This document shows, in pieces, positions 1 to 8,226 of a stretch of 64,000 bases of DNA (its first letter is position 1; each line of letters starts with the position of its first letter). The position numbers were made by a program, and so were the translations under genes. Origin of the DNA: Escherichia coli (GTDB lineage Bacteria > Pseudomonadota > Gammaproteobacteria > Enterobacterales > Enterobacteriaceae); the NCBI RefSeq assembly GCF_050920415.1, contig NZ_CP169309.1. One strand, 5' to 3'. A model generated the notes under the pieces. The model saw only the letters and a program-made list of their open reading frames with translations. It ran no database searches and had not been told where the DNA came from.

Positions 1-1941
<1,941 letters not shown>

Positions 1942-1957
1942 GTTCACTAAAAAATAG

Positions 1958-1987
1958 AACGGGGCCAAATCGGTCCCGTTTTTTTTC
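1958..1987 (+). terminator. Rho-independent terminator after glgP
   Basis: GC-rich hairpin aacggggcc-aaat-cggtcccgtt followed by a T-run (1981-1987). Confidence 0.6.
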
Positions 1988-2070
1988 GCCTTTATTTCGG
2001 AGAAGTGTCCAGAGGGGCAAGGGGACTCGGGGGAGTATAATTTCGCCATTCAGAAAGAATGGAAAGAATA

Positions 2071-3576
2071 ATGCAAAACAAAAAATGGATTTTGACCTCG
2101 CTGGTAATGGCTTTTTTCGGCATCCCCATACTGGCGCAATTTTTGGCAGCGGTTATTGCCATGCTGGGGGCCGGGCTTGCCGCTATTCTTGAGGCTTGCA
2201 ATTTACTCTTTACGCCAACAATTTATCTTCTACTCAACGTCTTTATGCTGACGCTGGGGGCGATAATCCTATTTTTCTCTGGTCGCGTGTGGGCCGGTGA
2301 TAGCGCACCAGAAAACAGAGAAATAGCCGTCTGGCGGCAATGCTTTTTTCTTTTACCTGCACTGTTAACTCTGGTTGGCTGGATAATCACGCTACATCTG
2401 GCAGATTATCAATTTCGCCAAATGGGAGCAGGTTGGTTGGCAGAGCTTATGCTCCCCTGGCTGGGAGTTTTGTTAGTCTCATTAGTCGGAGGTGAGTTCT
2501 GGTGGATAGTCATTATACCCGTTGGTGCGCATATTAGTTTTTCACTGGGGTATGGCTGGCCGACCAGATATCCTTTAACCGGCACGTACGGGTTACGTTG
2601 CCGTAATTCCCTCCTGTTTATCCTTCTCATGCTTGGTTTTATCGCTGGTTATCAGGCTTATTTATATAAACAGATTAATCCCGGCGTCGGTGTGCGTGAA
2701 AATATTGATATCTGGGCCTGGCGACCCGATAAACTCAATAATCAACTGCCGCCACTGCGTGGTAAACCGCAAATTCAGTTTACACAAAACTGGCCGCGAC
2801 TCGATGGTGCTACAGCGGCGTACCCAATTTATGCTTCTGCCTTTTATGCGTTGAGCGTTATACCGGAAGATTTCCACACTTGGGAATATCTGGAGAACTC
2901 TCGTACCCCCGATGCATATAACAGGATTGTTAAAGGTGATGCCGATATTATTTTTGTGGCGCAACCTTCCGGTGGGCAGAAAAAACGCGCAGAGGAATCG
3001 GGCGTCACTTTGAACTACACTCCTTTCGCCCGTGAAGCATTCGTTTTCATCGTCAATGCGGATAACCCGGTTAATTCCCTGACTGACCAACAGGTGCGTG
3101 ACATCTTCAGTGGCGCAATTACCAACTGGCGCACGGTTGGCGGTAACGATCAGGAGATCCAGACCTGGCAACGCCCGGAAGACTCTGGCAGCCAGACAGT
3201 GATGCAATCGCAGGTCATGAAAAATGTCCGCATGATCTCGCCGCAGGAAACCGAAGTGGCAAGCATGATGGAGGGAATGATTAAAGTTGTTGCCGAATAC
3301 CGTAATACAAACAACTCAATAGGCTACACCTTCCGCTATTACGCAACACAAATGAACGCCGATAAAAATATAAAACTGCTAGCTATTAACGGTATTGCAC
3401 CGACTGCGGAAAATATTCGTAACGGCAAATATCCGTATATCGTCGATGCCTTTATGGTAACGCGGGAAAATACTACGTCAGAAACACAAAAACTGGTCGA
3501 ATGGTTTTTAACGCCGCAGGGGCAGAGTCTGGTGGAAGATGTGGGTTATGTACCGTTGCATACAACAATGAAATAA
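2071..3576 (+). CDS. Fusion protein: N-terminal polytopic membrane domain + C-terminal PstS-like (PBP_like_2) periplasmic binding domain; function unknown
   Basis: ORF 2059..3576 (505 aa); ATG at 2071 is preferred (ggaaag RBS 5 nt upstream, TATAAT at 2036-2041), 2059 is the alternative. N-terminal ~230 aa has several hydrophobic helices; C-terminal ~270 aa carries the motif ...NSLTDQQVRDIFSGAITNWRTVGG... typical of phosphate-binding-protein-like domains. Domain call from motif memory, not HMM search. Confidence 0.75.
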   Translation: MQNKKWILTSLVMAFFGIPILAQFLAAVIAMLGAGLAAILEACNLLFTPTIYLLLNVFMLTLGAIILFFSGRVWAGDSAPENREIAVWRQCFFLLPALLTLVGWIITLHLADYQFRQMGAGWLAELMLPWLGVLLVSLVGGEFWWIVIIPVGAHISFSLGYGWPTRYPLTGTYGLRCRNSLLFILLMLGFIAGYQAYLYKQINPGVGVRENIDIWAWRPDKLNNQLPPLRGKPQIQFTQNWPRLDGATAAYPIYASAFYALSVIPEDFHTWEYLENSRTPDAYNRIVKGDADIIFVAQPSGGQKKRAEESGVTLNYTPFAREAFVFIVNADNPVNSLTDQQVRDIFSGAITNWRTVGGNDQEIQTWQRPEDSGSQTVMQSQVMKNVRMISPQETEVASMMEGMIKVVAEYRNTNNSIGYTFRYYATQMNADKNIKLLAINGIAPTAENIRNGKYPYIVDAFMVTRENTTSETQKLVEWFLTPQGQSLVEDVGYVPLHTTMK

Positions 3577-3601
3577 CTTTTGAGAGAACGGAATCAGCGC
3601 G

Positions 3602-4594
3602 ATGAATAAATTCATAGGCGTTTTACTGCTAGGTGCGGTTTTACTGGCGGGATGTGTCGACCGGGAAGGGTACTATAACAGCGTCAGGGAAGAAGAAAGC
3701 CATGGACTGACGTCTCTGCGGGGGCAACCAGAATTACGTTACAGCGATGATTGGTCAAGATGGCCGAGAGTGTACGGCGCTACAGCCTTATACCCGCTGT
3801 ATGCTTCCGCGTATTATGAATTAGTACCCGAGCCAAAAGATAAGGATCGAACCTCGCTGGCCTGGCAGGCGTATGGTTTGCAACAAACCCGAACAGCTGA
3901 AGCCTACGATAGTCTGATCAAGGTTACCGCGACGGTTATTTTTGTTGCACAACCGTCGGAAGGACAGAAAAAACGTGCAGAAGAAGCAGGCGTTAAACTG
4001 AAATATACCGCTTTCGCCCGCGAAGCCTTTGTCTTTATCGTTGATATCAAAAACCCGGTTAATTCACTTAGCGAACAGCAGGTCAAAGACATTTTTAGCG
4101 GTAAAGTGAGTCGCTGGAATAAAGTGGGCGGCGGTGACGAAAGTATAAAAGTCTGGCAGCGGCCAGAAGATTCTGGAAGCCAAACGGTTATGAAGGGACT
4201 GGTTATGCAAGATACTCCAATGCTGCCAGCCAAAAAATCCACTGTTATCGATCTTATGGGCAGTTTAATTACCGAAGTCGCCGACTACCAAAACACAACA
4301 TCTTCCATTGGATACACCTTCCACTATTACGTCACGCGTATGAATGACAATATGCTCAAAATGCGCAAACAGATCAAACTGCTGGCTATAAATGGCGTTG
4401 CACCTACAGAGGAAAATATCCGTAACGGCACTTATCCGTACATAATTGATGCTTATATGGTGACGCACGAAAACCCTACGCTGGAAACGCAGAAATTCGT
4501 CGACTGGTTTTTAAGCCCGCAGGGACAGCAATTGGTAGAGGATGTGGGCTATGTGCCGATTCATGACGCATCATACGAATCATCAGTGCAATAA
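3602..4594 (+). CDS. Lipoprotein with PstS-like (PBP_like_2) binding domain; paralogue of the C-terminal domain of the upstream gene
   Basis: 330-aa ORF; N-terminal signal peptide with lipobox LLAGC; long colinear similarity to residues ~240-505 of the upstream protein (e.g. IFVAQPSEGQKKRAEEAGV / IFVAQPSGGQKKRAEESGV; WQRPEDSGSQTVM in both). Confidence 0.8.
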   Translation: MNKFIGVLLLGAVLLAGCVDREGYYNSVREEESHGLTSLRGQPELRYSDDWSRWPRVYGATALYPLYASAYYELVPEPKDKDRTSLAWQAYGLQQTRTAEAYDSLIKVTATVIFVAQPSEGQKKRAEEAGVKLKYTAFAREAFVFIVDIKNPVNSLSEQQVKDIFSGKVSRWNKVGGGDESIKVWQRPEDSGSQTVMKGLVMQDTPMLPAKKSTVIDLMGSLITEVADYQNTTSSIGYTFHYYVTRMNDNMLKMRKQIKLLAINGVAPTEENIRNGTYPYIIDAYMVTHENPTLETQKFVDWFLSPQGQQLVEDVGYVPIHDASYESSVQ

Positions 4595-5196
4595 TGATGA
4601 ATAAAATCAGACTTTATATTCCTCCGTTAATTCTTGGTTTTTTTATTGTGCCGTTGTTGGTGTGGCCGACGGTGGTTGCGCTGGCTGCTTCTGTTATCAC
4701 GCTGAGTTTTCTGGGAGAGATACTGTTCTCTATCCCGCTCATGATCAGGCATATTTCGCTTCTGCAATTACAACTATGGTTATCGGCTGAATATGCGCTT
4801 TTCTGCTGTGCAATGGTGGGCGTTGGTTGGCAATTTGCGCGCAGAACGCCACCTGAATCGAAAAGCAGACTGCATTGTTGGCTGGTATTTGCACCGGTTT
4901 ATTTCTGGTTGCTCCTGTGGAATATCATTTTCTATGTCGCGCCAGCGAATATTGCGTTGCTGGAGAATATGCGCAGTTTCTTTCTGACAGTTGTCTGGCT
5001 CCCACTAAATTTTTCACCATTTTGGTCCCAACCGTGGATTGACTTTGTCGGTCCAATAAGCGCACAGCTTGGTTTTGCGTTGGGATATTATTGCCAGTGG
5101 CGTAGCAAAAATAGAAGCCAGATACGGAAGTGGAGTGAGTGGGGAACGTGCCTGAGTTTTGTTACGTTGGGTATGATGGCGTGGGCTTTGCGGTAA
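4594..5196 (+). CDS. Polytopic membrane protein, homologous to the N-terminal membrane domain of the 2071..3576 protein
   Basis: 200-aa ORF; start overlaps the previous stop (TAATG); hydrophobic segments; local similarity to the upstream fusion protein (MMNKIRLYIPPLILGFF vs MQNKKWILTSLVMAFFG; VGPISAQLGFALGYYCQW vs VGAHISFSLGYGW). Confidence 0.7.
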   Translation: MMNKIRLYIPPLILGFFIVPLLVWPTVVALAASVITLSFLGEILFSIPLMIRHISLLQLQLWLSAEYALFCCAMVGVGWQFARRTPPESKSRLHCWLVFAPVYFWLLLWNIIFYVAPANIALLENMRSFFLTVVWLPLNFSPFWSQPWIDFVGPISAQLGFALGYYCQWRSKNRSQIRKWSEWGTCLSFVTLGMMAWALR

Positions 5197-5248
5197 TTCC
5201 CTGACTCAAAAAGTAGGTCAGATTGTTGACAAAGTGCGCTTTGTTCAT

Positions 5249-6626
<1,378 letters not shown>

Positions 6627-6687: not shown

Positions 6688-8193
6688 TTACGACGCCAGC
6701 GACAACCTCTGCTGCGTATACTCCCCTAGCCACTGACTCACACGGGATTGTTGCTGCGCATTCAGCCACATGCCTTGTTTTGTGCGACGCCACAGGGCAT
6801 CGTCGGCGCGGCGGACCCATTCGTGATCCACAAGGTATTTCAGCTCCGCTTCGTAGAACTCATGACCGAAATCCTCCCCAAGATCGCTTACCGCCCCCGC
6901 ATTGCCGAGCAGCAGCTCGCTGTTGCTGCCGTAAGTGCGCGCGTAGTGACGTGCCAGCGATTCAGTCAGGAACGGGTAACGGCGGCGCAGGCGGGCGGCA
7001 TAATCGTCGCGATCGCCTTCAATGGCACCACCCGGCAGCACGCTCTCTTTCGTCCACGCCGGGCCAATGCCCTGATAATACGGCGTCAGTTTTTCCAGCG
7101 CGTGCTCCGCCAGTTTGCGGTAGGTGGTCAGCTTACCGCCGAATACCGATAACAGCGGAGCTTTGCCGTTTTCATCATGGATATCAAGGGTGTAATCACG
7201 GGTAATGGCCTGCGGCGAATCAGATTCATCATCACACAGCGGACGCACACCGGAGTAGGTCCAGACGATATCGTCCCGGCTTAACTGCTTTTTAAAGTGC
7301 GTGTTATACACTTTCAGCAGGTAATTGATTTCACTCTCTTCAATCTTCACTGCTTTTGGATCACCTTTGTATTCCACATCGGTGGTGCCGATGATGGAAA
7401 ACTCGTCCATCCACGGGATCACGAAGACAATACGTTTATCTTCGTTTTGCAGAATGTAGGCTTGCTTCTGGGTATGCACACGCGGCACGACAATATGGCT
7501 GCCTTTGATCAGGCGAATGCCATAAGGTGAGGGTAGATGCATCCCGTCGTCGAAGAACTGCTTCACCCACGGGCCGGTGGCGTTCACGAGGCCGCGCGCT
7601 TGCCAGCTATATTTTTTGCCGGTATCGATATCTTCCGCTTCCACAATCCACAGGCCGTTTTCGCGGCGAGCAGAAGTGGCACGAGTACGGGTAAGCACTT
7701 CACCGCCTTTACGCACCACCATCTGGGCGTTGGCGAGTACCAGACGGGCGTCGTCTACCCAACAGTCGGAATATTCGAATCCGCGCTTAATTTCCGGTTT
7801 TAACACTGAATTTGCGCCAAAACGCAAACCGGTTGATCCCGGCAGGCTGGTGCGTTTACCCAGATGATCGTACATAAACAGACCAATACGGATCATCCAC
7901 GCCGGACGCAGATGCGGGCGATGCGGCAGGCGAAAACGCATCGGGAAAGCGATATGGGGAGCCATTTTCAGCAACACTTCACGTTCAGCCAGCGCCTCGC
8001 TGACCAGGCGGAATTCATAGTGCTCAAGGTAGCGCAGGCCACCATGAATGAGTTTTGAACTGGCGGAAGAGGTCGCACAAGCGAGATCCTGCGCCTCCAG
8101 CATCAGCACGGATAAACCGCGTCCAGCGGCGTCTGCCGCGATACCAGCACCATTGATGCCGCCACCTATCACAATCAGATCTTTGGTTTCCAT
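6688..8193 (-). CDS. glpD: Aerobic glycerol-3-phosphate dehydrogenase
   Basis: ORF 6688..8208; translation from METKDLIVIGGGINGAGIA... (FAD-binding GxGxxG) matches GlpD; ATG at 8193 gives 501 aa. Confidence 0.95.
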   Translation of the reverse strand: METKDLIVIGGGINGAGIAADAAGRGLSVLMLEAQDLACATSSASSKLIHGGLRYLEHYEFRLVSEALAEREVLLKMAPHIAFPMRFRLPHRPHLRPAWMIRIGLFMYDHLGKRTSLPGSTGLRFGANSVLKPEIKRGFEYSDCWVDDARLVLANAQMVVRKGGEVLTRTRATSARRENGLWIVEAEDIDTGKKYSWQARGLVNATGPWVKQFFDDGMHLPSPYGIRLIKGSHIVVPRVHTQKQAYILQNEDKRIVFVIPWMDEFSIIGTTDVEYKGDPKAVKIEESEINYLLKVYNTHFKKQLSRDDIVWTYSGVRPLCDDESDSPQAITRDYTLDIHDENGKAPLLSVFGGKLTTYRKLAEHALEKLTPYYQGIGPAWTKESVLPGGAIEGDRDDYAARLRRRYPFLTESLARHYARTYGSNSELLLGNAGAVSDLGEDFGHEFYEAELKYLVDHEWVRRADDALWRRTKQGMWLNAQQQSRVSQWLGEYTQQRLSLAS

Positions 8194-8226
8194 GCTGCCC
8201 TCATTCACTTTCGTTAAAGCTCATAA

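Follow-up and report, generated by a model that had tools for sequence, protein, structure and literature searches.

Fused and split pairs of a PstS-type binding domain and a helical membrane domain between glgP and glpD of Escherichia coli

A 64,000-nt stretch of Escherichia coli contig NZ_CP169309.1 (hereafter the window) carries three open reading frames (ORFs) on the + strand, here called g1, g2 and g3, which lie between glgP and a copy of the insertion sequence IS621 that is followed by glpD (Table 1). An earlier note, made from the sequence alone, had described three co-directional and translationally coupled genes at 2059-5196, built from membrane domains and PstS-like binding domains, and the three ORFs were indeed found there. 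Only g2 and g3 overlap, their stop codon and ATG sharing one base at 4594 (TAATG), which suggests co-production of both proteins; for g1 and g2 coupling is not supported, because a gap of 25 nt separates them. In g1 a second ATG at 2071 is better placed than the first, with GGA 8-10 nt upstream, and would give a 501-aa product. Phosphate-type periplasmic binding proteins are textbook partners of ATP-binding cassette (ABC) transporters. No ABC permease or ATPase gene was found in the g1-g3 locus, in agreement with the earlier note. In RefSeq the genes of E. coli MFDS1022581, which are identical, and their homologues in O157:H7 are annotated as two 'PstS family phosphate ABC transporter substrate-binding proteins' and one 'hypothetical protein'. 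The analyses presented here show that g1-g3 belong to an uncharacterised, widely distributed family in which a PstS-type domain is joined to a helical membrane domain. In the allele of the window this unit occurs twice, fused in g1 and split over two polypeptides in g2 and g3.

The soluble domain, a type II periplasmic binding protein domain, was assigned to the PstS/PBP_like_2 family and not to an unrelated one. Residues 250-485 of g1 matched Pfam PBP_like_2 (PF12849) with an E-value of 1.4e-29 over model positions 16-265 of 267, and the C-terminal domain of g1 shares 58% identity with g2 over 286 aa (E 1e-118). A profile built from 53 binding domains of the family was compared with solved PstS structures and matched 4q8r, 4gd5, 4n13, 9l8j, 1twy and 4exl at E-values of 1e-28 to 1e-22, the best matches spanning the whole domain. 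In these alignments the R-x3-S-G-T motif of the solved structures lines up with R372-x3-S376-G377-S378 of g1, and their G-S-T lines up with G-A-T252. The phosphate ligands of E. coli PstS (1IXH) are taken by us to be T10, F11, S38, D56, R135, S139, G140 and T141; R372, S376, G377, S378 and T252 of g1 would then presumably be equivalent to R135, S139, G140, T141 and T10, respectively. Judging from the aligned residues, the ligand can reasonably be taken to be anionic and phosphate-like. At the N-terminus of g2 (MNKFIGVLLLGAVLLAGC) a signal peptide ends in the lipobox LLAGC (MNKFIGVLLLGAVLLAG-C18), in accordance with the pattern L-[AS]-[GA]-C, with Cys18 as the lipobox cysteine and Val at position +2, and g2 is thus a predicted lipoprotein that consists of the same binding domain as the C-terminal part of g1.

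Genuine PstS proteins are the closest sequence relatives of these domains, the Arg/Ser-Gly-Ser anion motif is kept, and databases annotate g1 and g2 as PstS. One could thus regard both proteins as accessory phosphate-binding proteins for a PstCAB transporter encoded elsewhere, with the membrane domain and the lipid anchor serving as mere tethers. However, the scores against NCBIfam TIGR02136 (118.8 bits for g1 and 117.8 bits for g2) are under the curated PstS cutoff, and pocket residues differ from those of PstS. Linkage to pstC, pstA or pstB was found neither at the g1-g3 locus nor among the neighbours examined in any of 79 related loci, and no Pho box is present upstream (a search of the whole window that allowed as many as 3 mismatches found none). 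Furthermore, neither a conserved membrane domain of 200 aa nor its free paralogue g3 would be necessary for tethering, and this explanation is considered rather improbable.

The relationship between the membrane domain of g1 and g3, which had been proposed to be the membrane domain alone, was not significant in BLASTP (E 0.6), and therefore profile methods were used. The g3 family alignment comprised 20 Escherichia sequences, and the alignment for the g1 membrane domain was made from distant fusion proteins. With hhalign, the two families aligned colinearly over 171-189 columns with a probability of 97-98% and E-values of 2e-10 to 3e-12; the real score was 69.3, whereas the reversed alignment reached 14.7 and none of 40 column shuffles exceeded 18.1. 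Moreover, a hidden Markov model (HMM) built from the membrane domains of 52 fusion proteins, with g3 left out, matched g3 of the window at an E-value of 2e-11, and the g3 HMM matched other enterobacterial fusion proteins at 5e-6 to 5e-5. Common to g3 and the fusion proteins is the motif P-x-[GCS]-[AS]-Q-x-x-F-[AT]-L-G-Y, behind which comes a loop rich in Arg and Lys. By these profile comparisons the homology of the g1 and g3 membrane domains was confirmed.

The first 245 residues of g1 gave no match in Pfam, BPD_transp_1 included, and the membrane domain could not be placed in any Pfam, NCBIfam, PADLOC or PHROG family. PADLOC models matched none of g1, g2 and g3, the PHROGs matched neither g3 nor the membrane domain of g1, and on these results an origin of the genes from a defence system or a phage was rejected. 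An AlphaFold2 (AF2) model of the membrane domain, computed from an alignment of 56 sequences, reached a predicted local distance difference test score (pLDDT) of 90.1 and a predicted template modelling score (pTM) of 0.87 and consists of six long helices (g1 residues 2-46, 53-82, 87-114, 124-144, 149-169 and 177-206). Fold searches returned no convincing structural relative outside the family itself. Sequence conservation in the membrane domain is low (mean column identity 21%); P23 alone is nearly invariant, and further residues that recur are Pro, Trp, Phe, two Arg in loops and Q199. The family alignment contains no conserved buried charged residue, and no internal repeat was detectable in the domain.

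A handler of lipid phosphates or polymer phosphates of the envelope was considered as a further explanation, in which the binding domain would grip the phosphate head and the membrane domain would accommodate the lipid part; candidate ligands would be polyprenyl phosphate, the head group of lipid A or of a phospholipid, and teichoic acid. The argument is purely circumstantial. The structural match to LucB, a small membrane protein bound to a lipid importer, is weak and covers 115 residues, and no envelope-biogenesis genes lie nearby in the neighbourhoods examined, so that this explanation appears quite improbable.

The orientation of the membrane domain was assessed from the net charges of its loops across the family, which are +1.8 at the N-terminus, +1.6 in loop 75-92, +3.8 (+3.75) in loop 166-182 before the last helix and -1.2 in the segment after the last helix. 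From these charges the last helix would run from the inside to the outside and the binding domain would be extracytoplasmic, with which the lipoprotein character of g2 agrees. The binding domain of g1 is thus predicted to be periplasmic, as the earlier note had supposed, and an orientation with the N-terminus inside and the C-terminus outside needs 5 or 7 membrane crossings.

To analyse the distribution of the family, its alignment was scanned against a single genome of each species, and this returned the 79 loci mentioned above. Enterobacterial members were found in Escherichia species, Pseudocitrobacter, Superficieibacter, Phytobacter, Klebsiella spallanzanii, Intestinirhabdus, Limnobaculum and Rahnella, and betaproteobacterial members in Brachymonas, Saezia, Zoogloeaceae, Azoarcus and Accumulibacter. 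Further members belong to the Bacillota (Oscillospiraceae, Clostridiales), Synergistaceae, Lentisphaeria, Verrucomicrobia, Campylobacteraceae and Acidobacteriota, and many come from metagenome-assembled genomes (MAGs) of termite or ruminant gut. Foldseek extends the membership to Salmonella, Budvicia, Leminorella and a lactobacillus relative. The Enterobacteriaceae, to which the earlier note had looked for the distribution of the genes, do contain them, while the architecture is family-wide in several phyla and not peculiar to this locus. A polytopic N-terminal region with 4-7 hydrophobic segments is present in nearly all members; usually it has about 200 aa with 5-7 segments, and a shorter form with 4 segments occurs in Lentisphaeria and some Oscillospiraceae. 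The exceptions have a single transmembrane segment or, in one betaproteobacterial MAG from termite gut, WG repeats. In the latter (L067, 4145-6400) a PstS-like domain of the subfamily is fused to six WG_beta_rep repeats, by which the polytopic domain is replaced. A single-sequence search with the membrane domain among 1.84 billion representatives gave 52 proteins, mostly fragments, and understates the breadth of the family; a profile search in a set of 5.8 billion proteins was dominated by Escherichia fragments and revealed no new domain fusions.

All-against-all clustering of 875 neighbouring ORFs yielded no gene family that travels with the family outside the Enterobacteriaceae. From the 79 loci, 20 operon-like neighbours were scanned, which comprised unrelated genes, such as ubiU/ubiV, ruvB, rpmE, fba and etfB, and several genes that match no family; ABC permeases, ABC ATPases and pho genes were absent from this set. 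In the Enterobacteriaceae the family is usually found at the glgP-glpD junction, either as a single gene, in tandem, or as a free membrane domain beside small secreted repeat proteins. As this position is restricted to the Enterobacteriaceae, the flanking genes of glycogen and glycerol-3-phosphate metabolism were dropped as a clue to the ligand. In an Intestinirhabdus-like lineage with two fusion genes in tandem (L008-L010, 1-7757) a type VI secretion system (T6SS) cluster with TssM/IcmF, a VasX_N toxin, DUF6708 and PAAR ends directly upstream, before glpD; the association is absent elsewhere, and the T6SS genes were dropped as a functional link. In other enterobacteria small secreted proteins with 'SSGETTYRDxNGNxxG' repeats adjoin family members (L012, 8810-9868; L016, 1736-2736).

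The upstream boundary of the module is marked by a terminator-like hairpin behind glgP, which is kept in 10 Escherichia alleles. It was absent from the output of the consensus scan and was found by reading the sequence directly. Upstream of g1 the candidate -10 hexamer (GGAGTATAAT) is identical in all 10 aligned Escherichia alleles, with a variable G-rich stretch around it; the promoter consensus scan made no call at this site because a -35 element is missing. Further upstream, at window positions 1995-2013, the block TTTCGGA(G/A)AAGTGTCCAG is near-invariant in the Escherichia alleles, with a variable spacer adjacent to it, and may be a regulator binding site. Between g3 and IS621 the window contains palindromic units resembling repetitive extragenic palindromes and bacterial interspersed mosaic elements (REP/BIME; 5200-5420) and a terminator-like hairpin at 5383-5402. 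The transposase of IS621 is split into ORFs of 250 aa and 76 aa by a 1-nt indel relative to the intact copy in NZ_CP169399.1.

Table 1. Position of g1-g3 and of the surrounding features in the window
Feature	Position	Strand	Remarks
glgP	133-1941		stop at 1941; upstream flank of the module
Terminator-like hairpin of glgP	1959-1987	+	8-bp stem (one pair is G-T) and loop of 5 nt; a T run follows
Candidate -10 (TATAAT)	2036-2041	+	no recognisable -35
g1	2059-3576	+	505 aa from ATG 2059; membrane domain and PstS-like binding domain
g1 membrane domain	2059-2673	+	aa 1-205
g1 PstS-like (PBP_like_2) domain	2794-3561	+	aa ~246-501; predicted periplasmic
g2	3602-4594	+	330 aa; predicted lipoprotein copy of the binding domain
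g3	4594-5196	+	200 aa; membrane domain standing alone
IS621 (IS110 family)	5426-6405	-	between g3 and glpD
glpD	6688-8208	-	beyond IS621

The presence of the genes was counted at a coverage of at least 80% among 5426 complete E. coli genomes. This gave 3346 genomes with g1 (62%), 884 with g2 (16%) and 3828 with g3 or a g3-like gene (71%); all three genes occur together in 882 (16%), O157:H7 and BL21 included. Alternative alleles consist of g1, hyp236, hyp255 and a g3-like gene, or of a fimbrial operon followed by hyp236, hyp255 and a g3-like gene. The tightly packed genes hyp236 and hyp255, which code for proteins of 236 aa and of 255 aa (the latter Cys-rich), replace g2 in many E. coli as well as in Pseudocitrobacter and Superficieibacter; the cassette is located at L003, 5690-7170, in E. 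coli O20:H12 and is also found in L004, L005 and L022-L024. Neither protein has a Pfam or PADLOC match, and in NCBIfam and the PHROGs hyp236 has only weak sub-threshold hits and hyp255 none. Genomes of the K-12 type, for which the earlier note gave a short remnant at this place, carry only yzgL (L097, 1668-1889), which joins the first ~74-78 codons of g1 to the 3′ end of g3. The junction corresponds to window positions ~2292 and ~5137, where about 8 nt are shared, and by this sequence comparison yzgL is what a deletion has left of the g1-g3 locus.

Ratios of non-synonymous to synonymous substitution rates (dN/dS) were determined between alleles at dS values of 0.17-0.97 and amounted to 0.13-0.14 for g1 (0.23 for the membrane part and 0.09 for the binding part), 0.11 for g2 and 0.18-0.19 for g3. 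With a value of 0.006 for glgP, g1-g3 are far less constrained than their neighbour. A decaying accessory island without current function is nevertheless very improbable, since the ORFs are intact in the window, dN/dS is 0.11-0.19 across the alleles, the -10 hexamer is invariant across species and the family is conserved across phyla. The dN/dS values show purifying selection on all three genes and, together with the conserved hexamer, mark them as functional. The glgP gene of the window is only ~95% identical to that of K-12 and most E. coli (dS 0.25 against O157), and a single complete genome, MFDS1022581, is identical to the region; it carries an IS3 inside g2, which the window does not. 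The region appears to come from a divergent Escherichia lineage.

On the basis of the sequence features described above, the module is proposed to be a self-contained, membrane-docked oxyanion receptor with a helical docking and transducing platform, a reading which we tentatively prefer although it falls somewhat short of being probable. In the periplasm the binding domain would close on its ligand, either a phosphate-like oxyanion or a phosphorylated compound, by means of the Arg-x3-Ser-Gly-Ser loop, which is conserved, and the helix cap G-A-T, and the closed domain would dock on the periplasmic face of its own membrane domain. The docking face would be formed by the few conserved membrane-domain residues F119, W148 and Q199, as placed by their positions in the sequence. 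The membrane domain might then report occupancy to other membrane proteins or keep the ligand at the membrane surface, and it would not form a translocation pore. In the same manner g2 and g3 would form a non-covalent equivalent of the g1 complex.

Alternatively, the module might be a binding-protein-dependent, ATP-independent transporter with a logic like that of the tripartite ATP-independent periplasmic (TRAP) transporters and the tripartite tricarboxylate transporters (TTT), the membrane domain, probably as an oligomer, being the pathway of the ligand. The 5-7 membrane crossings far exceed the needs of an anchor and are kept in the Bacillota, where a lipid anchor would suffice; the unit is self-contained without partner genes; and covalent fusions of binding and membrane domains are generally typical of transporters such as OpuA and GlnPQ. 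By this analogy a transporter is conceivable, if unlikely. A platform is favoured over a phosphate pathway because the membrane domain evolves fast, has no conserved buried charge or polar residues and no internal repeat, and because simpler anchors replace it in some members. The occurrence of g3 beside the unrelated hyp236 and hyp255 in alleles without g2 likewise fits a reusable membrane platform.

Several observations weigh against the receptor proposal. Both g1 and g2 stay below the whole-protein cutoff of TIGR02136 (206.6 bits, compared with 118.8 for g1), and the pocket is remodelled throughout the family relative to canonical PstS, with G-A-T-A for G-S-T-S, [KR]-T for S-S and Q-P-S where the aligned solved PstS proteins have S-R-D. 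The S-R-D stretch is presumed to be the site of Asp56 in E. coli PstS, and the position which we take to be S38 would by sequence alignment alone be a Thr preceded by Lys or Arg. With such a pocket and such scores the ligand may not be orthophosphate. The AF2 model has six helices, against the odd number of crossings (5 or 7) given by the charge rule; in the model, one of the helices may be a hairpin or not span the membrane, which would reconcile the two. An AF2 model of full-length g1, made from 8 sequences, was poor (pLDDT 58), so that no geometry of interdomain docking can be derived from it, and the docking idea stems from the positions of residues in the sequence and not from a model of a complex. 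There is no cytoplasmic output domain in g1-g3 and no conserved partner gene in the neighbourhoods examined, and hence no evident route for a signal. The locus is dispensable, as g1 is missing from 38% and g2 from 84% of the complete E. coli genomes.

In the literature no study of the g1-g3 proteins was found, and with a membrane domain outside the known families the description of the module as unstudied proved apt. In a screen of island deletions in enterohaemorrhagic E. coli, deletion of O-island 133 (OI-133), which we infer to be the g1-g3 island, lowered type III secretion (PMC3378721), a result that is repeated in a review (PMC10877973). This screen is the sole phenotype on record and was not followed up; it is a lead and no test of function. 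The same applies to the listing of K-12 yzgL, which retains the candidate promoter, at -2.0 in a CpxR table (PMC2731931).

A PstS-type domain joined to an undescribed membrane domain, with no ABC system alongside, occurs in at least 6 phyla, and databases still label the family 'phosphate ABC transporter substrate-binding protein'; knowledge of its function would correct a widespread mis-annotation and could reveal a new coupling of ligand capture to the membrane. It is possible, albeit doubtful, that the combination of a new membrane fold with a PstS-type domain represents an unrecognised class of binding-protein-coupled membrane machine, be it an ATP-independent transporter or a signal transducer, which would be shared by diderm and monoderm gut bacteria and of which E. 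coli would possess fused and split versions. The locus lends itself to study, since O157:H7 and BL21 carry g1-g3, K-12 is a natural deletion, and the fused and split versions stand side by side.

Among known systems, substrate-binding domains are fused to the permease in ABC importers of the OpuA and GlnPQ type, in which the binding domain is likewise tethered covalently to a polytopic membrane domain. In contrast to these, g1 is without BPD_transp_1, has no ATPase gene adjacent to it and carries the membrane domain first and the binding domain last. TRAP and TTT transporters employ a periplasmic binding protein and no ABC ATPase, and in this respect g1-g3 resemble them. However, no similarity to DctQ/DctM or TctA/TctB was found in Pfam, NCBIfam or fold searches of g1-g3, and the membrane domain of g1 and g3 comprises only ~200 aa with no detectable internal repeat. 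The match to LucB, which is bound to the Mce1 lipid importer of mycobacteria (PDB 8fed chain K), extends over about half of the membrane domain, is typical of generic helical bundles and is not accompanied by a sequence relationship.

Use of a PBP_like_2 protein for sensing is exemplified by PstS of Pseudomonas aeruginosa, which acts on the chemoreceptor CtpL (reviewed in PMC8050422). That system pairs a soluble binding protein with a receptor that possesses a cytoplasmic signalling domain, whereas g1-g3 are without an output domain. Compared with PstS of the PstSCAB importer, the g1 and g2 domains are fused to or paired with a polytopic membrane domain, are unlinked to pstCAB or phoU, have no Pho box upstream of g1 and are altered at several pocket positions; in sequence family and predicted fold, as well as in the R-x3-S-G-[ST] loop and the Thr of the first helix cap, the two agree.

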